Assembly: GCF_003018115.1 (NCBI RefSeq)
Contig: NZ_CP027457.1
DNA: 64,000 bases
Strand: one strand, 5' to 3'
DNA from: Escherichia coli
GTDB taxonomy: Bacteria > Pseudomonadota > Gammaproteobacteria > Enterobacterales > Enterobacteriaceae
Shown here: positions 1 to 52,948 of the stretch, in pieces
Layout: every line of letters begins with the position of its first letter
How positions within the stretch are numbered: the first letter of the stretch is position 1
The notes under the pieces: model-generated
Told to the model about the DNA's origin: nothing
The model's database searches: none
The model's input: only the letters and a program-made list of their open reading frames with translations
Translations under genes and position numbers: made by a program

Positions 1-716
1 AGCGACTGCTGGATGAACTTAACAGCACGTTGCGCGATACCGGGCGTATGGGGCAACAACTGAGCGGAAAAGTTCGGGTCGCTGCCAGCCAGACCATTTC
101 CGCGCATCTTATTCCGCAATGCATTGCTGAAAGCCATCGCCGCTATCCAGATATTCAGTTTGTCCTGCACGATCGTCCGCAGCAGTGGGTGATGGAAAGT
201 ATTCGCCAGGGAGATGTCGACTTTGGCATCGTCATCGATCCAGGCCCAGTGGGCGATCTGCAATGTGAAGCGATTCTTTCCGAGCCTTTCTTTCTGCTTT
301 GCCATCGCGATAGCGCTTTGGCCGTGGAAGATTATGTACCCTGGCAGGCATTACAGGGAGCGAAATTGGTGTTGCAGGATTACGCGTCAGGCAGCCGACC
401 GCTGATTGACGCAGCGCTGGCGCGCAATGGTATTCAGGCGAATATTGTGCAGGAGATTGGACATCCGGCGACGCTGTTCCCGATGGTAGCCGCAGGCATC
501 GGCATCAGTATTCTTCCCGCACTGGCGCTACCATTGCCTGAAGGTAGCCCACTGGTGGTAAAGCGCATTACGCCGGTTGTTGAACGCCAGTTGATGCTGG
601 TGCGCAGGAAGAACCGTTCACTTTCCACCGCCGCTGAAGCGTTATGGGACGTGGTACGAGACCAGGGCAATGCGCTAATGGCTGGTCGGGAAGGGGATCC
701 GTTGTATCAGATATAG
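1..716 (+). CDS. yfeR: LysR-family transcriptional regulator, 5' end outside window (partial; frame of ORF 30..716)
   Basis: C-terminal LysR substrate-binding domain in the translation; position next to yfeN/xapA as in K-12 synteny. Confidence 0.75.
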
Positions 717-30463: not shown

Positions 30464-30481
30464 TTCCTACAATTGTAAGAC
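30464..30481. promoter_or_regulatory. EvgA box upstream of yfdX
   Basis: ttcctacaattgtaagac fits the 18-bp inverted-repeat EvgA consensus TTCYTACA-N2-TGTARGAA. Confidence 0.5.
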
Positions 30482-30616
30482 TAAAATACTTCTTGCGATA
30501 ATAACTACAACTGTAAGATAACCCTTTCAAAATGACCGTTGCTCTCTGATTTCTCATTTCATGCTCACCCAATATGATGGCGGCGTTTTCTAAAACTGTT
30601 AAAGAATGAGGTAAGT

Positions 30617-31510: not shown

Positions 31511-31760
31511 TAACATCACAAATGTCGCGACTCTCTCTGATTACCACGAACCAATATTTATCATATTCTTCTTTTCGTCCTCACTACTTACCATGCAGAA
31601 AGGAATTGGAAGTAGCGATGAAATGATTTTCAGCACTTGATACAGGAATGTGAAAATATCGAGTGCAGCTACGACGATATTTTGCGGATTATTTATAGAG
31701 GCGTTATGCCTTAAATAAACGCTAAATTAACACATATTTAATTAACTAATAGGTATTGCT

Positions 31761-37047: not shown

Positions 37048-40000
37048 TTAGTTATTTTGTTGACAGAAAACAGCAATCTCCTGGTCCAGCTCTGCAATGT
37101 GTTCTTTTACAGAGTTCAGCAACTGAAGAATTTCAGGCTTACTGTCATCTGAAACAGGTGTTATTTCTAACTGATGGCTAATATTAATCAACTTTTGCAA
37201 ATTCAGGATGTTAGCCGCACCGTGGATGCGATGAATACACTGATGGAAAGTTCTATTATCGCCAGCTTCTAGTGCATGAAACGCAGCGGATAAATCTTTA
37301 TGTGTTTCATGCTGGAAAGTCATGAGAATCTCCTGCATCAGTTGTAGATCGTTCGCCGTATTATTTTTCAGGGCCTCGATATCAAGGTGGCGATACTGAG
37401 GTACAATATGCGCAACCTGGTGTAACTGACTTAAATGTGTTTTCAGTACATCCAGGGTCAACGGTTTGAACAAACATAAGTTCATGCCGCAATTTAACCC
37501 TTTTTCACGTTCGTTAGCCTGTGCGTTGGCTGTAAGCCCCCAGATGGGTAAGGACGAATTTTGCTCACGGAGTTTGCGAGTCAACTCAAAACCATCCATA
37601 TTCGGCATATTAACGTCAGTAATAAGCAGATCATAATGTTGCATACTGACTTTGTGTAGCGCTTGCACACCATCAGTGGCTTCGTCAACATCATATCCTA
37701 ATAGATTTAGCTGGCGTTTGAGTAATAGCCTGTTGGTCGGATGATCATCCGCGATTAATATGCTCAACTTTTCAGGTAGTGTGATAGGTTGTTCTGCTTT
37801 TGCCTCGACAGCCGCCACTTGTTGGGTAATTTCTACCGGGATTGTGATCGTAAATGTTGTTCCTATGCCTGGATGACTTTCTAATGACAAATCACCCTGC
37901 ATGTTTTTAATTAATTCTTTGCAGATCATTAAGCCTAAACCAGAACCTGTTTGCTGACGACCTGCACTTGTTTGGCTATAACGTTTAAACAGTTGTTGTT
38001 GTTCTTCCTGTGATAATCCACTTCCAGAATCCATAATCGTCATTTTGATTACAGCGTGGTTGTCATCAATGTGACCCAGGGAGGTCGTAATTTTTACTGC
38101 CCCCTCGGTGGTAAATTTGAGAGCATTACTCAGTAAATTTGATAAGACCTGCTTAAACGCCTGAGGGTCGATCTTAACTAGGTAATGTTCAGGAAACGTA
38201 CTGCTGCAACTTAATGCGATCGATTTGCTTGCAGCAATCGCACCGAAAGAGTGACAAGTGTTCTGGACTAAAGTAGGAATATCGACCCATTGTGGTTGAA
38301 GTTGATAGTTACCCGATTCAATTTTGTCGACATCAAGGATTTCACCAATTAAGCCGAGGAGTGATTGTCCGGTGGCGTAGGCAAGTGAAATCGCCTCCAC
38401 CCGTTGTTCCTTGCTAAGACCAGAACCCGACAGAAGTTCCAGGAAGCCCATAATAGAGCTTATTGGTGTTCTTATTTCGTGACTCATCGTTGCCAGAAAC
38501 TGACTTTTTGCTACGGTAGCCTTTATCGCTTTATTTTTTTCTACCTCGAGTGCATTAATTAGATCACGCGTTTCAGTAATATCTTGCCAACCACAAATAT
38601 ATACTGCATTGTCACTTGCAGGAAGATTGCATAATGTATGCCAGTGATTAATGCATCTTTTCTCGATGCCATTATCAATTTCAAATACCTGTGTGTATAT
38701 TGTTCGGTTTTCTTTCGTCTCTGCTGTGACTTCATGCGTATTAGAAAAAACATCTTTAAAGGGTGATTCACTGTTTTCTAATGGCAACATTGCATTTTTG
38801 TAGTAATCAGCAGTGAAATAATGTTCAAATGCACTATTGTGACTAATGACATTACCTTGCCAGTTTACAACATAAGTTGGATTCGGTAAGGAGTCCGAGA
38901 GCGCTTTCCGGAATGATATTTGGTTTTCTAAATCACCCTGAATGACTTTACGACGACGAACTGAGCGTAACAGGTAGAATCCCCATAAAAGGCTACTGCC
39001 AACTAATAAAACGGATAATGTCGTAACAATATAAAATTGCTCGCTATAGAGGTCCCATGTGTCAATGGTCACATTGGGCATTTTAATCCATTTTTCCGTC
39101 AGGCGCAGAACTTCGCTTGGGGGGATTGCATTCAGTGCTTTATTAATAATATCCTTAAGTTCCGGTTCTCCGCGAGGAAAAGCGAACGAAAGCGATGCAT
39201 TCGGAACGCCGGGAATAAGAAAATGATAAAGTTCATTAGGATAGTAATGGTCGATCATGTAACGCGAATTTAGCTGTGTCGCGACCAGAGCATCAAGTTC
39301 ACCTTCCTTGACCTTGTGAAATGCAGCGCTGGCGTTATCGACTTTTATCCACTCTACCTCCGGATACATCTCTTTTAATTGCGAATGCAGCTCATAATAA
39401 TATGGAATGGCAACTTTCATTCCTTTTTTTAATGTTTGTTCACTGTCAGGCGCTTTTTGCATGACAAAAACGTAAGGCGTTGTTATGAAGGCTTCAGCAA
39501 ATAAAACATTATTTTCTCTATCTTCACTATAAATAGCACCGGGTAATATATCCCATCCGCCGGGATTCAGCTGTGTTCCGGCATGGATATTGTGTGAAAC
39601 GGTGATCGGAGAAAAATTTAAACCTGTTTGCAAGGTAATAATATTAAGAATGTCCCCCATAACGCCCCGAACCGAGCCATTTTCATCCGTCATAGAATAG
39701 GGGGGCGAGTAAGGATTTTCCAGCACCTTTAAATCGGGATGCTGCTTAATCCACTGTTTTTCATGTTCAGTGAGTTCTAATGGCTTGTTCAGAAAGGCTA
39801 GGTTTCCTGTATCAAGCCAATTTTGTGATACTTCATAGCGAACTTCATTTGTTAAAGCATCAACAAATCGATTGAGTACTTCATTAAGAATGACAGATTC
39901 TTTTCTGGTTAAGAAGAAGTTATATTGACGCGGTGAGTTATAATATTTCACTACATTTAAGGAGTGAGTGAAATAGCGGGAAATCATACTGCTGGTAATG

Positions 40001-40641
40001 ATGTTACTACCAATAAAGTAATCATTCTGTCCGGCTGAGACGGATGCTAATGCCTGATATAAATTTGTAAAAGAGATAATTGTTGCTTTTGGAAATGATT
40101 GATGAATTATCTCGTCAGGGGGATAATTTGCTACTCGAGCAATATTTACTGGTTTTGATGAGGTAAGCGGTCGCATTGAATCGTGAAGGGTGGTGACCAG
40201 CGCCGGAAAGGTAATTATCAGTGGTTTGGTTGCAGCAATGTCATCATTAAGAGGCGGCGAAGCAACTAAATGTGATAACACTATATCGACTTCACCTTCT
40301 TCCAGCGCGTCCATTGCTTTTTGATGATCGGCGTATTCCCGGAGTGTTAATTTGATATTTAACGCTCTTTTTAAAAGATTTAAATAATCAGCATTAATAC
40401 CACGAACCCGTTGCTGCGAATCGGTATGCAACAACGTAGCCGTTTGGGACTTATGTACTGCAATCACAAGATTTTTTTTGCTCGCTAACCAACGTAATTC
40501 CTTGTTGCTCAGACGTAGTGGATCAAGTGTGACACGGTTGTTACTACTGATGCCACGATATTCGATGTAATCTTCGTCTGCGAAACTTATGGTCGACCAA
40601 AGACCACAACAGAGAAGAAAAATATAGGGTAAAAACTTCAT
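37048..40641 (-). CDS. evgS: hybrid sensor histidine kinase (periplasmic sensor, HisKA, HATPase, receiver, HPt)
   Basis: 1197 aa, BvgS-like architecture. Confidence 0.95.
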   Translation of the reverse strand: MKFLPYIFLLCCGLWSTISFADEDYIEYRGISSNNRVTLDPLRLSNKELRWLASKKNLVIAVHKSQTATLLHTDSQQRVRGINADYLNLLKRALNIKLTLREYADHQKAMDALEEGEVDIVLSHLVASPPLNDDIAATKPLIITFPALVTTLHDSMRPLTSSKPVNIARVANYPPDEIIHQSFPKATIISFTNLYQALASVSAGQNDYFIGSNIITSSMISRYFTHSLNVVKYYNSPRQYNFFLTRKESVILNEVLNRFVDALTNEVRYEVSQNWLDTGNLAFLNKPLELTEHEKQWIKQHPDLKVLENPYSPPYSMTDENGSVRGVMGDILNIITLQTGLNFSPITVSHNIHAGTQLNPGGWDILPGAIYSEDRENNVLFAEAFITTPYVFVMQKAPDSEQTLKKGMKVAIPYYYELHSQLKEMYPEVEWIKVDNASAAFHKVKEGELDALVATQLNSRYMIDHYYPNELYHFLIPGVPNASLSFAFPRGEPELKDIINKALNAIPPSEVLRLTEKWIKMPNVTIDTWDLYSEQFYIVTTLSVLLVGSSLLWGFYLLRSVRRRKVIQGDLENQISFRKALSDSLPNPTYVVNWQGNVISHNSAFEHYFTADYYKNAMLPLENSESPFKDVFSNTHEVTAETKENRTIYTQVFEIDNGIEKRCINHWHTLCNLPASDNAVYICGWQDITETRDLINALEVEKNKAIKATVAKSQFLATMSHEIRTPISSIMGFLELLSGSGLSKEQRVEAISLAYATGQSLLGLIGEILDVDKIESGNYQLQPQWVDIPTLVQNTCHSFGAIAASKSIALSCSSTFPEHYLVKIDPQAFKQVLSNLLSNALKFTTEGAVKITTSLGHIDDNHAVIKMTIMDSGSGLSQEEQQQLFKRYSQTSAGRQQTGSGLGLMICKELIKNMQGDLSLESHPGIGTTFTITIPVEITQQVAAVEAKAEQPITLPEKLSILIADDHPTNRLLLKRQLNLLGYDVDEATDGVQALHKVSMQHYDLLITDVNMPNMDGFELTRKLREQNSSLPIWGLTANAQANEREKGLNCGMNLCLFKPLTLDVLKTHLSQLHQVAHIVPQYRHLDIEALKNNTANDLQLMQEILMTFQHETHKDLSAAFHALEAGDNRTFHQCIHRIHGAANILNLQKLINISHQLEITPVSDDSKPEILQLLNSVKEHIAELDQEIAVFCQQNN

Positions 40642-40645
40642 GTGG

Positions 40646-41260
40646 TTAGCCGATTTTGTTACGTTGTGCGAATGTGTAAAGATCCATCAGTGATTTACAT
40701 TCTAATTTTTCCATCAGGCGACTTTTATAAGTGCTGACAGTTTTGTTGCTGATGAACATTTTTTCAGCAATGTCATTATTATCCTTGCCATCAAGAATAT
40801 AGCGCATGACACTAATTTCTTGTTTCGATAAGGAGTCGAGTTTTTGCTGGTCGGACGTTAAACTTCCAACAAACCGGTTGAGAGAGAAGGGGAAATAGCA
40901 GTAGCCATTTTTTGCAGCTTCAATAGCCGCAATGATATTGTTCATGCCTTCTTTTTTACTCACGAAACCATTAGCGCCAGCATCAGCACAATGTTTCCCG
41001 TAAAAATGGTCATTTTTAGCGGAAACGATAATAATAATTCCGCTATATTGACGCTTTCTCAGCGTTTCTAACACCTGGATACCGTTAACTCCGGGGATAT
41101 CGACATCAATGATGACGATATCAGGCTTAAGTGTTTCCACCCGCTGAACGGCACTTCCGCCTTCAGTCAACTCTGCTAAGATTTCAATATCGTTTTTGAT
41201 CAATAAATTACGAATTGCTGCGATAGCAAGAGGATGGTCATCAATAATTATTGCGTTCAT
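40646..41260 (-). CDS. evgA: NarL/FixJ-family response regulator
   Basis: 204 aa; receiver domain plus LuxR-type HTH. Confidence 0.95.
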   Translation of the reverse strand: MNAIIIDDHPLAIAAIRNLLIKNDIEILAELTEGGSAVQRVETLKPDIVIIDVDIPGVNGIQVLETLRKRQYSGIIIIVSAKNDHFYGKHCADAGANGFVSKKEGMNNIIAAIEAAKNGYCYFPFSLNRFVGSLTSDQQKLDSLSKQEISVMRYILDGKDNNDIAEKMFISNKTVSTYKSRLMEKLECKSLMDLYTFAQRNKIG

Positions 41261-41484
41261 AGATTATTCCCTTTGCAATGAAGCATCTCCCTTCTCCCTG
41301 TAGTAATACAGACATAAGGCATCATCTCATTTTCTCAATAAAAATAAGAAAATTTGAGCTTCCTTTAAGATAATTCGACAAGTATACCATATAAATAGTC
41401 GGCATATATGAAATGTCAACAATAAAATCAGGGATTGTACCGATGATTTATAGTTTCACATTAGCACTATAAGTCTTCTCACTA

Positions 41485-41502
41485 ATCCTACAGGCGTAAG
41501 AA
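41485..41502. promoter_or_regulatory. EvgA box in the evgA-emrK divergent control region
   Basis: atcctacaggcgtaagaa is a near match to the EvgA inverted-repeat consensus. Confidence 0.45.
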
Positions 41503-41675
41503 TTGTATTGCAAAAGCCACGGTTTAGTCCTCTGTTGTTTTTTTTGCACCTCATTTAAATTAGGCCTCCAACGTTCCTGGGATAATGTGCAACACATGCA
41601 CTGTGTTTGATATGAAGAATGAATACTCTTTTCATTCAATTCATAAATTTCATCTATGCGAAATGAGAGATAATA

Positions 41676-42839
41676 GTGGAACAGATTAATTCAAATAAAA
41701 AACATTCTAACAGAAGAAAATACTTTTCTTTATTGGCGATAGTTTTATTTATTGCGTTTTCAGGTGCTTATGCCTATTGGTCAATGGAATTAGAAGACAT
41801 GATTAGTACAGATGACGCCTATGTCACGGGGAATGCAGATCTAATTTCTGCACAAGTCTCAGGTAGTGTCACTGTAGTTAATCATAAAGATACGAACTAC
41901 GTTCGACAGGGTGACATTTTAGTTTCACTGGATAAAACTGATGCCACTATCGCACTCAATAAAGCTAAAAATAATCTGGCAAATATTGTTCGGCAAACGA
42001 ATAAACTGTACTTACAGGATAAACAATACAGTGCCGAAGTCGCTTCAGCACGTATTCAGTATCAACAATCTTTAGAAGATTATAACCGTCGTGTGCCTTT
42101 AGCGAAGCAGGGGGTTATTTCAAAAGAAACGCTGGAGCATACCAAAGATACGTTAATAAGTAGCAAAGCGGCATTGAATGCCGCTATCCAGGCTTATAAA
42201 GCGAATAAAGCTTTAGTAATGAACACACCATTAAACCGTCAGCCACAAGTCGTTGAAGCGGCGGATGCAACTAAAGAAGCCTGGTTGGCGCTTAAACGTA
42301 CGGATATTAAGAGTCCGGTTACCGGCTATATTGCCCAGAGAAGTGTTCAGGTCGGCGAAACAGTGAGCCCCGGACAATCGTTAATGGCTGTCGTACCGGC
42401 ACGTCAAATGTGGGTTAATGCCAACTTTAAAGAAACACAACTCACAGATGTACGGATTGGTCAATCGGTCAATATTATCAGCGATCTTTATGGTGAGAAT
42501 GTTGTGTTTCATGGCCGGGTGACAGGGATCAATATGGGAACCGGCAATGCGTTCTCCTTATTACCTGCACAAAATGCGACAGGGAACTGGATCAAAATCG
42601 TTCAGCGTGTACCGGTTGAAGTTTCTCTTGATCCAAAAGAACTCATGGAACACCCCTTGCGCATTGGTTTATCGATGACTGCAACTATTGATACGAAGAA
42701 CGAAGACATTGCTGAGATGCCTGAGCTGGCTTCAACCGTGACGTCCATGCCGGCTTATACCAGTAAGGCTTTAGTTATCGATACCAGTCCGATAGAAAAA
42801 GAAATTAGCAACATTATTTCGCATAATGGACAACTTTAA
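41676..42839 (+). CDS. emrK: multidrug efflux membrane-fusion protein (EmrA-like)
   Basis: 387 aa, HlyD-family, single N-terminal TM. Confidence 0.92.
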   Translation: MEQINSNKKHSNRRKYFSLLAIVLFIAFSGAYAYWSMELEDMISTDDAYVTGNADLISAQVSGSVTVVNHKDTNYVRQGDILVSLDKTDATIALNKAKNNLANIVRQTNKLYLQDKQYSAEVASARIQYQQSLEDYNRRVPLAKQGVISKETLEHTKDTLISSKAALNAAIQAYKANKALVMNTPLNRQPQVVEAADATKEAWLALKRTDIKSPVTGYIAQRSVQVGETVSPGQSLMAVVPARQMWVNANFKETQLTDVRIGQSVNIISDLYGENVVFHGRVTGINMGTGNAFSLLPAQNATGNWIKIVQRVPVEVSLDPKELMEHPLRIGLSMTATIDTKNEDIAEMPELASTVTSMPAYTSKALVIDTSPIEKEISNIISHNGQL

Positions 42840-44377
42840 TGGCAATCACTAAATCAACTCCGGCACCATTAACCGGTGGGACGTTATGGTGCGTCACTAT
42901 TGCATTGTCATTAGCGACGTTTATGCAAATGTTGGATTCCACTATTTCTAACGTCGCAATACCGACAATATCTGGCTTTCTGGGAGCATCAACAGACGAA
43001 GGCACCTGGGTTATCACCTCGTTTGGCGTAGCAAATGCCATTGCGATCCCTGTTACCGGCAGGCTGGCACAAAGAATAGGCGAATTAAGGTTATTTTTAC
43101 TTTCAGTCACTTTTTTTTCGCTGTCTTCCTTAATGTGTAGTTTATCGACCAATCTTGATGTGCTGATATTTTTTAGAGTCGTTCAGGGGTTAATGGCAGG
43201 GCCGTTAATTCCACTGTCACAGAGTTTATTATTAAGGAATTATCCACCAGAAAAAAGAACATTTGCTCTGGCATTATGGTCAATGACCGTGATTATCGCT
43301 CCGATATGTGGGCCGATATTGGGCGGTTATATTTGTGATAACTTTAGCTGGGGTTGGATATTTTTAATCAATGTCCCTATGGGTATTATCGTCCTGACAT
43401 TATGCTTAACCTTACTTAAAGGAAGAGAAACTGAGACTTCACCGGTCAAAATGAATCTACCAGGACTGACCCTGTTAGTGCTCGGTGTTGGTGGCTTGCA
43501 AATTATGCTTGATAAAGGGCGCGATCTGGATTGGTTCAACTCGAGTACAATAATAATATTAACAGTAGTATCAGTTATTTCTCTGATCTCTTTAGTCATT
43601 TGGGAGTCGACCTCAGAGAACCCGATTCTTGATCTCAGTTTGTTTAAGTCCCGTAACTTCACTATTGGTATTGTGAGTATCACATGCGCGTATTTATTTT
43701 ACTCTGGAGCGATCGTCCTTATGCCGCAGTTACTCCAGGAAACGATGGGGTATAATGCGATATGGGCCGGACTTGCTTATGCGCCCATCGGCATCATGCC
43801 ACTATTAATTTCACCTTTGATAGGACGTTATGGCAACAAAATAGACATGCGGTTGTTAGTGACATTTAGTTTTTTGATGTATGCGGTTTGCTATTACTGG
43901 CGTTCTGTGACATTTATGCCAACGATTGATTTTACAGGCATCATTTTGCCACAGTTTTTCCAGGGATTCGCCGTTGCCTGTTTCTTTTTACCCTTAACAA
44001 CGATTTCGTTTTCAGGGTTGCCAGATAATAAATTTGCCAATGCCTCGAGTATGAGTAATTTTTTTCGTACCTTGTCAGGATCAGTTGGTACATCGTTGAC
44101 AATGACGCTGTGGGGGCGACGCGAATCGTTACACCATAGTCAGTTGACAGCAACCATCGATCAATTTAACCCTGTGTTTAATTCATCGTCACAAATTATG
44201 GATAAATACTATGGTTCGCTTTCAGGAGTTCTTAATGAAATTAATAATGAAATAACCCAGCAGTCACTTTCTATTTCTGCAAATGAGATTTTCCGTATGG
44301 CGGCTATTGCTTTTATCTTACTTACGGTTTTGGTTTGGTTTGCGAAACCGCCGTTTACAGCGAAAGGCGTTGGGTGA
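42839..44377 (+). CDS. emrY: MFS multidrug efflux pump (EmrB-like, 14 TM)
   Basis: 512 aa; start overlaps the emrK stop. Confidence 0.92.
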   Translation: MAITKSTPAPLTGGTLWCVTIALSLATFMQMLDSTISNVAIPTISGFLGASTDEGTWVITSFGVANAIAIPVTGRLAQRIGELRLFLLSVTFFSLSSLMCSLSTNLDVLIFFRVVQGLMAGPLIPLSQSLLLRNYPPEKRTFALALWSMTVIIAPICGPILGGYICDNFSWGWIFLINVPMGIIVLTLCLTLLKGRETETSPVKMNLPGLTLLVLGVGGLQIMLDKGRDLDWFNSSTIIILTVVSVISLISLVIWESTSENPILDLSLFKSRNFTIGIVSITCAYLFYSGAIVLMPQLLQETMGYNAIWAGLAYAPIGIMPLLISPLIGRYGNKIDMRLLVTFSFLMYAVCYYWRSVTFMPTIDFTGIILPQFFQGFAVACFFLPLTTISFSGLPDNKFANASSMSNFFRTLSGSVGTSLTMTLWGRRESLHHSQLTATIDQFNPVFNSSSQIMDKYYGSLSGVLNEINNEITQQSLSISANEIFRMAAIAFILLTVLVWFAKPPFTAKGVG

Positions 44378-45830: not shown

Positions 45831-46061
45831 TTAGATGATAAATGACAGCAGGAATGTGCCCGCCAGAGCGACGACTGAAGCGATAAATGTCGCTGTCGTA
45901 TAGTATTTAAATGTTTCATTGAGCGTAGCGCCGCAATATTGCTTCACCAGCCAGAAAAGCGAGTCCATAACGATCGTGCAGCCAATCGCGCCTGAACCGA
46001 TAGCAATCGCAATAATTTCCGGGCTGATGTCGGGATACAGCGGCAGCACAATGATCCATAT
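45831..46061 (-). pseudogene. dsdX: C-terminal fragment of the D-serine permease (GntP family); 5' part replaced by the csc insertion
   Basis: Frame encodes ..IWIIVLPLYPDISPEIIAIAIGSGAIGCTIVMDSLFWLVKQYCGATL..FII and opens at an in-frame stop; the ORF-track M at 46049 is an internal GTG. Confidence 0.8.
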
Positions 46062-46291
46062 TTATATTTTCTTCTCCAGGTTGGCGATGCCAGTTGGCAT
46101 GTTTTACTTACTTGCCTATATGGTTACTCGTTGGCGAGAACAGAGGCGGAATTTGGGACAATTGTCCGGCAATTATTGTTATTTTTTATTGTATTGCCGT
46201 GTCGGGTGATAGGGCGTTGAGAATTTCGTTGGATCTCGCCAGTGACGTCTGTTTCTGCTACAGTGCCCGTTTTACGGCAAACGGCTTGGGT

Positions 46292-47287
46292 ATGGCTTCA
46301 TTAAAGGATGTCGCACGCCTGGCGGGAGTGTCGATGATGACAGTCTCCCGGGTGATGCATAATGCAGAATCTGTGCGTCCTGCAACGCGTGACCGCGTAT
46401 TGCAGGCAATCCAGACCCTGAATTATGTTCCTGATCTTTCCGCCCGTAAGATGCGCGCTCAAGGACGTAAGCCGTCGACTCTCGCCGTGCTGGCGCAGGA
46501 CACGGCTACCACTCCTTTCTCTGTTGATATTCTGCTTGCCATTGAGCAAACCGCCAGCGAGTTCGGCTGGAATAGTTTTTTAATCAATATTTTTTCTGAA
46601 GATGACGCTGCCCGCGCGGCACGTCAGCTGCTTGCCCACCGTCCGGATGGCATTATCTATACTACAATGGGGCTGCGACATATCACGCTGCCTGAGTCTC
46701 TGTATGGTGAAAATATTGTATTGGCGAACTGTGTGGCGGATGACCCAGCGTTACCCAGTTATATCCCTGATGATTACACTGCACAATATGAATCAACACA
46801 GCATTTGCTCGCGGCGGGCTATCGTCAACCGTTATGCTTCTGGCTACCGGAAAGTGCGTTGGCAACAGGGTATCGTCGGCAGGGATTTGAGCAGGCCTGG
46901 CGTGATGCTGGACGAGATCTGGCTGAGGTGAAACAATTTCACATGGCAACAGGTGATGATCACTACACCGATCTCGCAAGTTTACTCAATGCCCACTTCA
47001 AATCGGGCAAACCAGATTTTGATGTTCTGATATGTGGTAACGATCGCGCAGCCTTTGTGGCTTATCAGGTTCTCCTGGCGAAGGGGGTACGTATCCCGCA
47101 GGATGTCGCCGTAATGGGCTTTGATAATCTGGTTGGCGTCGGGCATCTGTTTTTACCGCCGCTGACCACAATTCAGCTTCCACATGACATTATCGGGCGG
47201 GAAGCTGCATTGCATATTATTGAAGGTCGTGAAGGGGGAAGTGTGACGCGGATCCCTTGCCCGCTGTTGATCCGTTGTTCCACCTGA
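46292..47287 (+). CDS. cscR: LacI-family repressor of the csc sucrose regulon
   Basis: 331 aa from MASLKDVARLAGVSMMTVSRV (LacI HTH); the ORF-track start at 46094 is a spurious 66-codon extension. Confidence 0.88.
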   Translation: MASLKDVARLAGVSMMTVSRVMHNAESVRPATRDRVLQAIQTLNYVPDLSARKMRAQGRKPSTLAVLAQDTATTPFSVDILLAIEQTASEFGWNSFLINIFSEDDAARAARQLLAHRPDGIIYTTMGLRHITLPESLYGENIVLANCVADDPALPSYIPDDYTAQYESTQHLLAAGYRQPLCFWLPESALATGYRRQGFEQAWRDAGRDLAEVKQFHMATGDDHYTDLASLLNAHFKSGKPDFDVLICGNDRAAFVAYQVLLAKGVRIPQDVAVMGFDNLVGVGHLFLPPLTTIQLPHDIIGREAALHIIEGREGGSVTRIPCPLLIRCST

Positions 47288-47294
47288 TATTATG

Positions 47295-48728
47295 CTAACC
47301 CAGTTGCCAGAGTGCCCCATGTTGCACCACAGCCACTCCGTGGGAGGCATAAAGCGACAGTTCCCGTTCTTCTGGCTGCGGATAGATTCGACTACTCATC
47401 ACCGCTTCCCCGTCGTTAATAAATACTTCCACGGATGATGTATCGATAAATATCCTTAGGGCGAGCGTGTCACGCTGCGGGAGGGGAATACTACGGTAGC
47501 CGTCTAAATTCTCGTGTGGGTAATACCGCCACAAAACAAGTCGCTCAGATTGGTTATCAATATACAGCCGCATTCCAGTGCCGAGCTGTAATCCGTAATG
47601 TTCGGCATCACTGTTCTTCAGCGCCCACTGCAACTGAATCTCAACTGCTTGCGCGTTTTCCTGCAAAACATATTTATTGCTGATTGTGCGGGGAGAGATA
47701 GATTGATGCTGCTGGCGTAACGACTCAGCTTCGTGTACCGGGCGTTGTAGGAGTTTGCCATTGCTCTCTGATAGCTCGCGCGCCAGCGTCATGCAGCCTG
47801 CCCAGCCTTCACGTTTTGAGGGCATTGGCGATTCCCACATATCCATCCAGCCGATAACAATACGCCGACCATCCTTCGCTACAAAGCTTTGTGGTGCATA
47901 AAAGTCATGCCCGTTATCAAGTTCAGTAAAATGCCCGGATTGTGCAAAAAGTCGTCCTGGCGACCACATTCCGGGTATTACGCCACTTTGAAAGCGATTT
48001 CGGTAACTGTATCCCTCGGCATTCATTCCCTGCGGGGAAAACATCAGATAATGCTGATCGCCAAGGCTGAAAAAGTCCGGACATTCCCACATATAGCTTT
48101 CACCCGCATCAGCGTGGGCCAGTACGCGATCGAAAGTCCATTCACGTAATGAACTGCCGCGATAAAGCAGGATCTGCCCCGTGTTGCCTTGGTCTTTCGC
48201 CCCGACTACCATCCACCATGAGTCGGCTTCACGCCACACTTTAGGATCGCGGAAGTGCATGATTCCTTCTGGTGGAGTGAGGATCACACCCTGTTTCTCG
48301 AAATGAATACCATCCCGACTGGTAGCCAGACATTGTACTTCGCGAATTGCATCGTCATTACCTGCACCATCGAGCCAGACGTGTCCGGTGTAGATAAGTG
48401 AGAGGACACCATTGTCATCGACAGCACTACCTGAAAAACACCCATCTTTGTCATTATCGTCTCCTGGCGCTAGCGCAATAGGCTCATGCTGCCAGTGGAT
48501 CATATCGTCGCTGGTGGCATGTCCCCAGTGCATTGGCCCCCAGTGTTCGCTCATTGGGTGATGCTGATAAAACGCGTGATAACGATCGTTAAACCAGATC
48601 AGGCCGTTTGGATCGTTCATCCACCCGGCAGGAGGCGCGAGGTGAAAATGGGGATAGAAAGTGTTACCCCGGTGCTCATGAAGTTTTGCTAGTGCGTTTT
48701 GCGCCGCATGCAATCGAGATTGCGTCAT
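47295..48728 (-). CDS. cscA: sucrose-6-phosphate hydrolase / invertase (GH32)
   Basis: GH32 motifs NDPNG and RDP; start taken at MTQSRL (AGGA 9 nt upstream) rather than the ATG at 48737. Confidence 0.9.
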   Translation of the reverse strand: MTQSRLHAAQNALAKLHEHRGNTFYPHFHLAPPAGWMNDPNGLIWFNDRYHAFYQHHPMSEHWGPMHWGHATSDDMIHWQHEPIALAPGDDNDKDGCFSGSAVDDNGVLSLIYTGHVWLDGAGNDDAIREVQCLATSRDGIHFEKQGVILTPPEGIMHFRDPKVWREADSWWMVVGAKDQGNTGQILLYRGSSLREWTFDRVLAHADAGESYMWECPDFFSLGDQHYLMFSPQGMNAEGYSYRNRFQSGVIPGMWSPGRLFAQSGHFTELDNGHDFYAPQSFVAKDGRRIVIGWMDMWESPMPSKREGWAGCMTLARELSESNGKLLQRPVHEAESLRQQHQSISPRTISNKYVLQENAQAVEIQLQWALKNSDAEHYGLQLGTGMRLYIDNQSERLVLWRYYPHENLDGYRSIPLPQRDTLALRIFIDTSSVEVFINDGEAVMSSRIYPQPEERELSLYASHGVAVVQHGALWQLG

Positions 48729-48762
48729 TTTAATCATCCTGGTTAAGCAAATTTGGTGAATT

Positions 48763-48774
48763 GTTAACGTTAAC
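48763..48774. promoter_or_regulatory. candidate CscR operator (12-bp palindrome), copy 1
   Basis: gttaacgttaac in the cscA-cscK divergent intergenic region. Confidence 0.4.
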
Positions 48775-48826
48775 TTTTATAAAAATAAAGTCCCTTACTT
48801 TCATAAATGCGATGAATATCACAAAT

Positions 48827-48838
48827 GTTAACGTTAAC
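48827..48838. promoter_or_regulatory. candidate CscR operator (12-bp palindrome), copy 2
   Basis: Identical gttaacgttaac 64 bp from copy 1. Confidence 0.4.
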
Positions 48839-48943
48839 TATGACATTTTGTGATCGAATATGCATGTTTTAGTAAATCCATGACGATTTTGCGAAAAAGA
48901 GGTTTATCACTATGCGTAAGTCAGATGAATTTAAGGGAAAAAA

Positions 48944-49858
48944 ATGTCAGCCAAAGTATGGGTTTTAGGGGATGCGGTAGTAGATCTCTTGCCAGAATCA
49001 GACGGGCGCCTACTGCCTTGTCCTGGCGGCGCGCCAGCTAACGTTGCGGTGGGAATCGCCAGATTAGGCGGAATAAGTGGGTTTATAGGTCGGGTCGGTG
49101 ATGATCCTTTTGGTGCGTTAATGCAAAGAACTCTGCTAACTGAGGGAGTCGATATCACGTATCTGAAGCAAGATGAATGGCACCGGACATCCACGGTGCT
49201 TGTCGATCTGAACGATCAAGGGGAACGTTCATTTACGTTTATGGTTCGCCCCAGTGCCGATCTTTTTTTAGAGACGACAGACTTGCCCTGCTGGCGACAT
49301 GGCGAATGGTTACATCTCTGTTCAATTGCGTTGTCTGCCGAGCCTTCGCGTACCAGCGCATTTACTGCGATGACGGCGATCCGGCATGCCGGAGGTTTTG
49401 TCAGCTTCGATCCCAATATTCGTGAAGATCTATGGCAAGACGAGCATTTGCTCCGCTTGTGTTTGCGGCAGGCGCTACAACTGGCGGATGTCGTCAAACT
49501 CTCGGAAGAAGAATGGCGACTAATCAGTGGAAAAACACAGAACGATCGGGATATATGCGCCCTGGCAAAAGAGTATGAGATCGCCATGCTGTTGGTGACT
49601 AAAGGTGCAGAAGGGGTGGTGGTCTGTTATCGAGGACAAGTTCACCATTTTGCTGGAATGTCTGTGAATTGTGTCGATAGCACGGGGGCGGGAGATGCGT
49701 TCGTTGCCGGGTTACTCACAGGTCTGTCCTCTACGGGATTATCTACAGATGAGAGAGAAATGCGACGAATTATCGATCTCGCTCAACGTTGCGGAGCGCT
49801 TGCAGTAACGGCGAAAGGGGCAATGACAGCGCTGCCATGTCGACAAGAACTGGAATAG
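48944..49858 (+). CDS. cscK: fructokinase (PfkB/ribokinase family)
   Basis: 304 aa; PfkB signature GAGDAF near the C-terminus. Confidence 0.9.
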   Translation: MSAKVWVLGDAVVDLLPESDGRLLPCPGGAPANVAVGIARLGGISGFIGRVGDDPFGALMQRTLLTEGVDITYLKQDEWHRTSTVLVDLNDQGERSFTFMVRPSADLFLETTDLPCWRHGEWLHLCSIALSAEPSRTSAFTAMTAIRHAGGFVSFDPNIREDLWQDEHLLRLCLRQALQLADVVKLSEEEWRLISGKTQNDRDICALAKEYEIAMLLVTKGAEGVVVCYRGQVHHFAGMSVNCVDSTGAGDAFVAGLLTGLSSTGLSTDEREMRRIIDLAQRCGALAVTAKGAMTALPCRQELE

Positions 49859-49929
49859 TGAGAAGTAAACGGCGAAGTCGCTCTTATCTCTAAATAGGAC
49901 GTGAATTTTTTAACGACAGGCAGGTAATT

Positions 49930-51177
49930 ATGGCACTGAATATCCCATTCAGAAATGCGTACTATCGTTTTGCATCCAGTTACTCATTTCTCTTTTTTAT
50001 TTCCTGGTCGCTGTGGTGGTCGTTATACGCTATTTGGCTGAAAGGACATCTAGGGTTGACAGGGACGGAATTAGGTACACTTTATTCGGTCAACCAGTTT
50101 ACCAGCATTCTATTTATGATGTTCTACGGCATCGTTCAGGATAAACTCGGTCTGAAGAAACCACTCATCTGGTGTATGAGTTTCATCCTGGTCTTGACCG
50201 GACCGTTTATGATTTACGTTTATGAACCGTTACTGCAAAGCAATTTTTCTGTAGGTCTAATTCTGGGGGCGCTCTTTTTTGGCTTGGGGTATCTGGCGGG
50301 ATGCGGTTTGCTTGACAGCTTCACCGAAAAAATGGCGCGAAATTTTCATTTCGAATATGGAACAGCGCGCGCCTGGGGATCTTTTGGCTATGCTATTGGC
50401 GCGTTCTTTGCCGGCATATTTTTTAGTATCAATCCCCATATCAACTTCTGGTTGGTCTCGCTATTTGGCGCTGTATTTATGATGATCAACATGCGTTTTA
50501 AAGATAAGGATCACCAGTGCGTAGCGGCGGATGCGGGAGGGGTAAAAAAAGAGGATTTTATCGCAGTTTTCAAGGATCGAAACTTCTGGGTTTTCGTCAT
50601 ATTTATTGTGGGGACGTGGTCTTTCTATAACATTTTTGATCAACAACTTTTTCCTGTCTTTTATGCAGGTTTATTCGAATCACACGATGTAGGAACGCGC
50701 CTGTATGGTTATCTCAACTCATTCCAGGTGGTACTCGAAGCAGTGTGCATGGCGATTATTCCTTTCTTTGTGAATCGGGTAGGGCCAAAAAATGCATTAC
50801 TTATCGGTGTTGTGATTATGGCGTTGCGTATCCTTTCCTGCGCGCTGTTCGTTAACCCCTGGATTATTTCATTAGTGAAGCTGTTACATGCCATTGAGGT
50901 TCCACTTTGTGTCATATCCGTCTTCAAATACAGCGTGGCAAACTTTGATAAGCGCCTGTCGTCGACGATCTTTCTGATTGGTTTTCAAATTGCCAGTTCG
51001 CTTGGGATTGTGCTGCTTTCAACGCCGACTGGGATACTCTTTGACCACGCAGGCTACCAGACAGTTTTCTTCGCAATTTCGGGTATTGTCTGCCTGATGT
51101 TGCTATTTGGCATTTTCTTCCTGAGTAAAAAACGCGAGCAAATAGTTATGGAAACGCCTGTACCTTCAGCAATATAG
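49930..51177 (+). CDS. cscB: sucrose:H+ symporter (MFS, oligosaccharide:H+ symporter family)
   Basis: 415 aa, 12-TM LacY-like protein. Confidence 0.92.
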   Translation: MALNIPFRNAYYRFASSYSFLFFISWSLWWSLYAIWLKGHLGLTGTELGTLYSVNQFTSILFMMFYGIVQDKLGLKKPLIWCMSFILVLTGPFMIYVYEPLLQSNFSVGLILGALFFGLGYLAGCGLLDSFTEKMARNFHFEYGTARAWGSFGYAIGAFFAGIFFSINPHINFWLVSLFGAVFMMINMRFKDKDHQCVAADAGGVKKEDFIAVFKDRNFWVFVIFIVGTWSFYNIFDQQLFPVFYAGLFESHDVGTRLYGYLNSFQVVLEAVCMAIIPFFVNRVGPKNALLIGVVIMALRILSCALFVNPWIISLVKLLHAIEVPLCVISVFKYSVANFDKRLSSTIFLIGFQIASSLGIVLLSTPTGILFDHAGYQTVFFAISGIVCLMLLFGIFFLSKKREQIVMETPVPSAI

Positions 51178-51296
51178 ACGTAAACTTTTTCCGGTTGTTG
51201 TCGATATCTCCATATCCCTCAACCGGAAAATAATAATAGTAAAATGCTTAGCCCTGGTGACTGCTCCCCGCCCTGTCGGGCGAGGCTTCCCACTTC

Positions 51297-52466
51297 TTAA
51301 GCTGCAACCGTCTGTGTGACGGATTTACGCTGGCCTCCATGGGCAGAAACGACGAGTCCCGCCGCTTGTAATTCCAGTATGCCCTTGCGTTTGATGTTGA
51401 GCGCCGCGTTGATATCGCGGTCATGTTCAACTCCACACTCTGGACACTGCCAGATGCGCTTATGTAATGGCATCTCCGACATTTTGTGACCGCAGCAGTG
51501 GCAGATTTTCGAACTGGCGAACCATTGATCCAGTTTCACCAGATGCACACCTTTCTCTGTTGCTTTGTATTCCAGTTTTGTGATGAATCCAGACCATCCA
51601 GCATCGCCTATCGCACGAGCCAGATGGTGATTTTTCATCATATTTGCCGTTTTCAATGTCTCGACAATTACCGCTTGGTTTTCGTCAACAATTGCGCGAG
51701 ATAACTTGTGCTGGAAATCGGCACGGGCACTGGCTACCCGTTCGTGAACGGCTGCAAGTTGTATTCTGGCTTTGCGCCTGTTTGCGCTCCCTTTTTTCTT
51801 ACGGGACAGTGCTTTCTGCTTCCGGCGAAGGTTGCGACTTGCATTGATTAGGTGGCGGGGACTGGCAATTTTATTGCCGTCCGATTTGATGACAAAATGC
51901 GCCAGCCCCATATCCAGCCCTGTCACATTTGATATCAGTGCGGGCTTTGCCGGCGCTTCCATCCCGTCGTCACAGAGTAACGACGCGTAGTATTTCCCGG
52001 TTGCGCTGCGGCTCAACGTGATACTTTTCAGCATTCCCGTAATTTCACGATGTAAACGCGCTTCAATCGGCAAGATTTTCGGTATTTTTATCGCACCATC
52101 AAGGACTTTTATGCCAACACAATGATAGCTCGATTGTCTGCCGTGTTTACTTTTAAAGGTAGGTTTACCTGCTTTCAGTTTCGGATTGAAAAAGTTAGAA
52201 AAAGCCACGTCGAGGTTAATTACCGCCTGCTGCAACGCAATAGAATCATATTCTTTAAGCCATCCATACCGGCGGGATTTCTTCGCCACTGCAAGCAGTG
52301 GTTTGAGGTCTTTACGCGGGTTTAAATTTACGCGGTGCCGCTGGTAAGAATGTTTCTTGATATGCAGAGCTTTGTTGTACGCAAAACGCACTGCACCGAA
52401 CTGGGCGTTGATAAATTCAGCCTGTTCTGGTGTCGGGTAGATGCGTACTTTTGTTGCTCTTAACAT
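51297..52466 (-). CDS. tnpB: TnpB (OrfB) RuvC-like RNA-guided endonuclease of the IS200/IS605 family
   Basis: 389 aa; N-terminal HTH-like region, RuvC-I (GLDMGL), RuvC-II (VIVETLK), zinc ribbon CHCCGH...CPECG, RuvC-III (HDRDINAALNI). Confidence 0.9.
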   Translation of the reverse strand: MLRATKVRIYPTPEQAEFINAQFGAVRFAYNKALHIKKHSYQRHRVNLNPRKDLKPLLAVAKKSRRYGWLKEYDSIALQQAVINLDVAFSNFFNPKLKAGKPTFKSKHGRQSSYHCVGIKVLDGAIKIPKILPIEARLHREITGMLKSITLSRSATGKYYASLLCDDGMEAPAKPALISNVTGLDMGLAHFVIKSDGNKIASPRHLINASRNLRRKQKALSRKKKGSANRRKARIQLAAVHERVASARADFQHKLSRAIVDENQAVIVETLKTANMMKNHHLARAIGDAGWSGFITKLEYKATEKGVHLVKLDQWFASSKICHCCGHKMSEMPLHKRIWQCPECGVEHDRDINAALNIKRKGILELQAAGLVVSAHGGQRKSVTQTVAA

Positions 52467-52522
52467 AATCAGCGCTCATTGATATAATTCTTTTATTTTA
52501 ACGCTTTAGGTGAATATATCAA

Positions 52523-52948
52523 TTGAGTAATCATGATGATTTACTGGCGGGATTTCTCCGCAAACGACACAGTGTCAGTAAGCTGGTTGTGCACCTTATT
52601 TTTACGACAAAGTATCGACGCAAACTATTCGACAGTCAGATGATCGCTCAGTTGCGTGAGGCTTTTGGCTCCGCTGCGGCAAAGCTTGAATGCGAAATTA
52701 TTGAGATGGACGGGGAGCCAGACCATGTACACCTGCTGGTTGCCTACCCGCCAAAACTGGCGGTCAGTGTGATGGTCAATAATTTAAAATCGGTATCATC
52801 ACGTTTGCTACGCCAGCAGAACGCGCATTTACGTATGCAGAGTAAAACGGGGCTTTTGTGGTCGAGATCGTACTTTGTCTGTAGCACCGGAGGGGCAACG
52901 ATTGAAACGCTCAGAGCCTACGTTCAGAGTCAGTCAACACCTGATTGA
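52523..52948 (+). CDS. tnpA: IS200-type Y1 (HuH) transposase TnpA
   Basis: 141 aa; HuH motif HVHLLV, conserved TTKYRR, catalytic Tyr region (SRSYFV). Confidence 0.88.
   Translation: MSNHDDLLAGFLRKRHSVSKLVVHLIFTTKYRRKLFDSQMIAQLREAFGSAAAKLECEIIEMDGEPDHVHLLVAYPPKLAVSVMVNNLKSVSSRLLRQQNAHLRMQSKTGLLWSRSYFVCSTGGATIETLRAYVQSQSTPD

Follow-up and report, generated by a model that had tools for sequence, protein, structure and literature searches.

The response regulator EvgA of Escherichia coli reportedly recognises the inverted repeat TTCYTACA-NN-TGTARGAA, a consensus said to go back to Masuda & Church 2003 and Itou et al. 2009. The RcsB box (TAAGAAT-ATTCCTA) is alike in its TAAGAA/TTCTTA-type half-site, and RcsB, like EvgA, has a helix-turn-helix domain of the NarL/FixJ family, but the half-sites of the two boxes stand in opposite relative order, and RcsB is not known to act at emrK. 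The EvgA half-site core TTCYTA also resembles the inverted heptads (TTTCCTA) of BvgA at vir-activated Bordetella promoters, fha among them. BvgA promoters and the emrK promoter are further alike in having a strong inverted repeat well upstream of the -35 element with conserved DNA between the two, whereas organism and regulon differ, as does the primary site, which is said to lie at -88.5 for BvgA and is predicted here at about -74 for EvgA. EvgA owes its name to its similarity to BvgA (PMC9496106). The closest described system is the emrK-evgA region of K-12 MG1655 (Kato et al. 2000; Tanabe et al. 1998), where the site has the same 18 bases and the same distances to both start codons as the one described below.

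Binding and induction at this promoter are taken from published work. PMC8174306 and PMC9496106 cite Kato et al. 2000 for direct binding of EvgA to the emrKY promoter, and in Shigella the induction of emrK is EvgA-dependent (PMC6393483). In a constitutive evgS mutant, emrK rises by log2 5.03 (about 32-fold) and emrY by 3.64 (PMC4283999 Table S4); in the same mutant frc is the most induced gene (log2 8.37), followed by yegR (7.75), yfdX (6.97), ydeP (6.02) and ydeO (5.55), and all directly regulated genes carry an EvgA site according to the same study (PMC4283999).

The plus strand at positions 41485-41502 of the window, by which we mean the whole 64,000-nucleotide stretch of E. coli DNA analysed, reads directly as ATCCTACAGGCGTAAGAA. 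It is arranged as ATCCTACA-GG-CGTAAGAA, an inverted repeat recorded with its strand left unspecified, whose emrK-proximal half-site CGTAAGAA occupies 41495-41502, and it was assigned as an EvgA box from its consensus match, its identity with K-12 and its conservation. Compared with TTCYTACANNTGTARGAA, the box departs at two places, having A instead of T at position 1 and C instead of T at position 11, and it matches 14 of the 16 positions that the EvgA consensus specifies. Both halves fit the half-site at 7 of 8 positions, and their complementarity to each other is just 5 of 8. Sequences with at most two mismatches occur three times in the 64-kb window against 0.04 expected from shuffles, and those with at most three mismatches four times against 0.54. 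The remaining matches, all on the plus strand, lie upstream of yfdX (30464-30481, one mismatch, and the promoter-proximal 30502-30519, three mismatches) and upstream of frc, where TTCTTACAGTTGTAAGAA at 31493-31510 matches the consensus perfectly.

In K-12 the same pattern is present upstream of safA, ydeP and yegR, and it is this recurrence in front of frc, yfdX, safA, ydeP and yegR that backs the consensus. In a consensus-free check, CTGTAGGAA was the sole 9-mer (at most one mismatch) common to all six EvgA-target upstream regions, the number of 9-mers so shared being not above the shuffle null. The other E. coli boxes (ydeP, safA-ydeO, yegR, yfdX, frc) have the same 18-bp motif and downstream layout as that of emrK, which is off consensus at positions 1 and 11 where the frc box is perfect, and which alone among them sits between the operon of the regulator itself and a target operon. 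The first-pass annotation had called the element a near-consensus EvgA site, and with 14 of 16 positions matched, 0.04 such matches expected per window and identity with K-12, this is borne out. The box is the known EvgA operator, the same as in K-12, already characterised and ordinary.

The box lies in the 415-bp evgA-emrK spacer (41261-41675), 224 bp from the evgA start codon and 173 bp from that of emrK; coordinates and strands agree with its earlier placement between divergent evgAS and emrKY. The response regulator gene evgA (40646-41260, minus strand) encodes 204 amino acids identical to K-12, with D52 present. The hybrid sensor kinase gene evgS (37048-40641, minus strand) encodes a full-length protein of 1197 amino acids with 20 substitutions relative to K-12, all of them outside the phosphorelay residues H721, D1009 and H1137, which are kept. 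On the other side, emrK (41676-42839, plus strand) encodes 387 amino acids with two substitutions relative to K-12, and emrY (42839-44377, plus strand) 512 amino acids identical to K-12. The start codon of evgA is overlapped by a nine-codon leader ORF, evgL (MLHCKGNNL; 41257-41286, minus strand), whose sequence is that of K-12 b4781; CsrA acts as a repressor of evgA translation, which is coupled to that of evgL (PMC11210196). As judged from gene content and residues, this confirms that the strain carries a complete EvgS/EvgA-EmrKY module, with a regulator and a kinase that look functional. The earlier statement that the regulatory wiring is intact holds in so far as all parts are present and K-12-like in sequence, but it was overstated as a functional demonstration. 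The G + C content is 33.7% in the spacer, 40.7% in evgAS and 41.7% in emrKY, compared with 48.1% in the window. The low value of the module (about 41%) agrees with horizontal acquisition and with the H-NS mark that has been reported in the spacer.

K-12 MG1655, in which the region has the opposite orientation to that of the window, shares the box, the flanking promoter elements and the EvgA protein, and differs in the 20 EvgS substitutions and at 9 of the 415 spacer positions, all of which lie outside the box and the 60 bp that follow it on the emrK side. The window is part of the E. coli chromosome, and strain F9792 is closer to it still, with four mismatches over 30.4 kb. The spacer was found in 5398 of 5426 complete E. 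coli genomes, and twenty plasmid places in the E. coli genome set also match it. Of 5417 E. coli records, 4891 carry an exact copy of a 30-mer around the box and 525 a copy with one mismatch. Two of these single-mismatch variants were inspected, one being a change of G9 to T in the unspecified spacer of the box and the other a change 3 bp outside it. On one plasmid, p2018-02-2CC_1 (102 kb; L018, NZ_AP027874.1 15591-27620), evgAS lies between IS1 copies, and about 95 bp beyond a degraded box (ATCCTGCATGCGTAAGAA) IS1 takes the place of emrK. Beyond emrKY in the window, at about 45831-53536 (positions from the annotation of the near-identical F9792, L002 coordinates + 26260), dsdX is truncated beside a sucrose-utilisation cluster, which comprises cscA and genes for a LacI-family regulator, a kinase and a transporter; beyond the cluster come the tnpA/tnpB pair of ISEc46, a fragment of an integrase gene and a tRNA-Arg. 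This insertion is missing from K-12 at the same position.

Since a comparison restricted to E. coli, at 96-100% identity, is too shallow to serve as a footprint, loci of other genera were fetched with EvgA as protein anchor, their EvgA being 71-87% identical. The divergent emrKY/evgAS layout is retained in five of these loci (L010-L014, EvgA 71-82% identical). In L009, L010/L012, L013 and L011 the emrK start is preceded at 166-177 bp by an element resembling the box, and in Dryocola (L014) at 121 bp by a related one. The emrK-proximal half-site YGTARGAA is retained in all relatives compared, and the evgA-proximal half is variable (ATCCTACA, TTCCTACA, TGATTACG, GGATGACA, AAACTACA, CACTGACA). 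Six spacers were aligned with MAFFT without an anchor (mean column identity 56%). Invariant columns number 18 out of 52 in the stretch that runs from the box to +34 and 24 out of 363 in the rest (Fisher p=1.3e-7); when only the box is counted, again across the six taxa, they number 8 out of 18, compared with 34 out of 397 outside it (p=1.2e-4). Among relatives whose EvgA is 76-87% identical, the box together with the 34 bp on its emrK side is the only strongly conserved block of the spacer.

Some further loci show variants of the site. The corresponding site of a sister lineage with a spacer about 86% identical (L005:1256-1273, labelled E. coli SCPM-O-B-8794) is a perfect palindrome, TTCCTACAGGTGTAAGAA. 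This lineage came with a contig scan using the back-translated EvgA N-terminus, which returned four loci and missed other named Escherichia species. A Citrobacter-like evgAS locus devoid of emrKY (L015:2746-2763) carries a near-identical box, ATCCTACACACGTAAGAA, 237 bp upstream of its evgA homologue, sharing the two off-consensus deviations of E. coli. The 10 bases after this box, AACCCTTTCA, recur after the proximal yfdX box of E. coli, and the side beyond the Citrobacter-like box holds no obvious gene, only short ORFs of 33 and 48 amino acids. In Klebsiella pneumoniae ATCC 13883 (L007:1173-1190), an evgA homologue is preceded at 171 bp by GGATGACAGCTGTAGGAA, which keeps C-A at +9/+10, T-C at +26/+27 and CTGTTA at +30..35, in a layout directed at a divergent ORF starting MAKEKRAFW.

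The conservation on the emrK side has a counterpart among the paralogous sites. Six E. coli EvgA-box promoters (emrK, yfdX with its proximal box, frc, safA, ydeP and yegR), aligned at the box in the direction of the gene, agree throughout at five positions (C at +9, A at +10, T at +26, C at +27 and T at +31), where shuffles or circular shifts give 0.2 (P<2e-4); read in the opposite direction, the six promoters had zero invariant positions. At the spacer box itself, all five are present on the emrK side and none of the five on the evgA side. The layout occupies 41503-41561, 30520-30580 and 31511-31570 in the window, and is found upstream of safA, ydeP and yegR in the K-12 loci (L003, L004). For emrK, the C-A falls at 41511-41512 (plus strand), invariant in the six promoters and retained in the orthologues of emrK, and is a candidate secondary contact for EvgA or for the alpha subunit of RNA polymerase. 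The hexamer AGTCCT follows at +24..+29 (41526-41531, plus strand), with the invariant T-C at 41528-41529. At this offset safA, ydeP and yegR have A[GA]TC[CT]T, and the frc box and the proximal one of yfdX are followed by TCTCTG; T268 and C269 are likewise invariant across taxa.

Because this directional layout is present only toward emrK, we predict a weak emrK promoter with the centre of the box near -74. Its putative -35 element would be CTGTTG (41532-41537, plus strand), 17 bp upstream of a candidate -10 element, TTAAAT or TAAATT (41555-41561, plus strand). At the -35 offset the relatives have CTGTTA, CTTTTA or CTATTA, and the T at +31 is the one invariant in the six promoters. A -10-like hexamer stands at +53..59 in all paralogues and emrK orthologues examined, the orthologues having TATCCT, TATGAT or TACCAT at +53..58 and the E. 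coli paralogues TATATT, TAATTT or TATGAT at the -10 offset. We infer a start site near 41567-41568. The ydeP leader starts at -178 (PMC11210196, Pourciau et al.), which is +66 after the ydeP box and agrees with the predicted geometry. The alternative of taking the +24..29 hexamer as the -10 element, with the box at -44.5, was rejected, since the ydeP leader start and the +53..59 hexamers fit a start near +66.

A simple sigma-70 scan of the spacer was uninformative, giving one weak hit (41399-41428, plus strand), fewer than shuffles, and missing both evgA promoters as well as the predicted weak emrK -35/-10 pair. A different, constitutive emrK promoter, TTGATA-17-TTTCAT at 41607, was predicted by Shimada 2014 (PMC3946193), and the emrK start site was not found in the start-site supplements of Kim 2012 or Ettwiller 2016. 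The table of Kim et al. 2012 does contain a start at U00096.2 2481164 (+), assigned to evgA with a 613-nt leader; it is antisense, lying within emrK and reading toward evgA (window about 41873, minus strand).

Taken together, the 18-bp element is very probably (about 0.88) an upstream activator site of the emrKY promoter. Its presence, its identity with K-12, its non-random occurrence, its conservation and its directional layout are direct observations of this analysis. It sits 173 bp upstream of emrK, the first gene of an operon that is induced when EvgS/EvgA is activated (PMC4283999), and on sequence grounds it appears to hold a fixed position relative to the core promoter that is shared with the five other EvgA-box promoters and the emrK orthologues. 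The activation of emrKY proposed by the first-pass annotation is consistent with this layout and with the published binding and EvgA-dependent induction. The proposed sequence of events is that EvgS, activated by mild acid, alkali metals and aerobic conditions, would phosphorylate EvgA via its phosphorelay, and that an EvgA dimer would then bind the imperfect inverted repeat at 41485-41502 and turn on a weak plus-strand sigma-70 promoter starting near 41567. The output would be transcription of emrK-emrY, which code for the adaptor and the pump of an MFS efflux system dependent on TolC.

Between the box and the -35 element, the conservation of C-A and T-C suggests further contacts, which might be made by a second, weakly bound EvgA dimer or by the alpha subunit. 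A second full EvgA site at 20-22 bp spacing, fitted to the C-A and T-C, reaches only 3-5 of 8 half-site matches, and cooperative binding of extra dimers would be a hypothesis drawn by analogy with BvgA. We tentatively propose, as a possibility of rather modest probability, that EvgA-activated promoters share an extended and strictly directional architecture in which the emrK-proximal half-site is functionally dominant. Its parts may be the 18-bp box near -74, C-A at about -57, T-C at about -40 and a weak -35 element. No description of such an extended directional architecture of EvgA promoters was found in the accessible literature.

It had also been proposed that the box mediates autoregulation of evgAS, which would make it a shared bidirectional operator through which EvgA activates both emrKY and, in a positive loop, its own operon. 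Autoregulation was reported by Tanabe 1998, as cited in PMC11210196 and PMC3219618, and the near-identical box of the Citrobacter-like locus lacking emrKY and the box-like element of Klebsiella, both upstream of evgA homologues, speak for it. On the evgA side, a sigma-70 promoter, TTGACA-17-ATTTAT (minus strand; -35 TTGACA at 41414-41419, -10 ATTTAT at 41391-41396), starts at about 41384, and a sigma-S promoter, TGgTATACT (41381-41389, minus strand), starts at 41374; they correspond to leaders beginning at -124 and -114 from the ATG (given in PMC11210196, citing Tanabe 1998). The centre of the box would then be at about -110 and -120 from these two starts, respectively, a distance that is unusually large though still possible. 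An evgA promoter-lux fusion gives 4.0 in the wild type and 3.8-5.2 with constitutive EvgS, compared with 0.0 to 6.2-43 for safA and 0.0 to 10.5-91.5 for ydeP (PMC4283999 Table S3), and evgA and evgS are missing from the list of genes induced more than 4-fold. Moreover, evgAS is stated to be 'not autoregulated' (PMC8174306), evgA is unresponsive to acid (PMC11210196), and in macrophages evgA expression is unchanged while emrK is induced (PMC6393483). The evgA side also lacks the directional signature, and the evgA-proximal half-site is the less conserved half. With an evgA promoter that barely responds to constitutive EvgS, a layout directed only toward emrK and a box some 110-120 bp away, the autoregulation claim is not upheld, and a bidirectional operator appears distinctly unlikely; published functional data agree that evgA is essentially constitutive.

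Two other readings concern the emrK side. EvgA could act mainly by displacing H-NS from AT-rich, horizontally acquired DNA, that is by anti-silencing and not by recruiting polymerase. The spacer, at 33.7% G + C, is well below the 48.1% of the window, and Shimada 2014 (PMC3946193) shows H-NS in this spacer and has a constitutive promoter listed for its emrK side. Against this stands the spacing of the box to the -35/-10-like elements, which is fixed across six promoters and several genera and which argues for a stereospecific contact with RNA polymerase. Anti-silencing as the main mode of action is unlikely, although the H-NS mark in an AT-rich spacer means that it may play a part. A fortuitous match in AT-rich intergenic DNA, devoid of any regulatory role, might be read into the imperfection of the palindrome, with its two consensus mismatches and its 5 of 8 self-complementarity. 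It is contradicted by the expectation of 0.04 such matches per 64 kb, by the retention of the site across genera in a spacer only 56% identical overall, by the exact 30-mer in 4891 of 5417 E. coli records and by the published binding and induction, and it is effectively refuted by the conservation and the literature. Activation of emrKY from an upstream site remains the preferred reading.

For the window as a whole the site matters little, being a textbook K-12 operator, unchanged, in a region that is near-universal in E. coli. Geometry and published reporter data are at odds with the common annotation that the box serves autoregulation of evgAS. The EvgS/EvgA-EmrKY module itself contributes to the efflux of bile salts and drugs and, in Shigella, to survival in macrophages. 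If the directional architecture is real, sequence-specific contacts would be made downstream of the box either by a second EvgA dimer of low specificity, in a BvgA-like filling toward the -35 element, or by the alpha subunit of the polymerase, and the box in the spacer would be a one-way switch for emrK with a vestigial or conditional input to evgA. The directional signature could help to show which side of a palindromic EvgA box is regulated.
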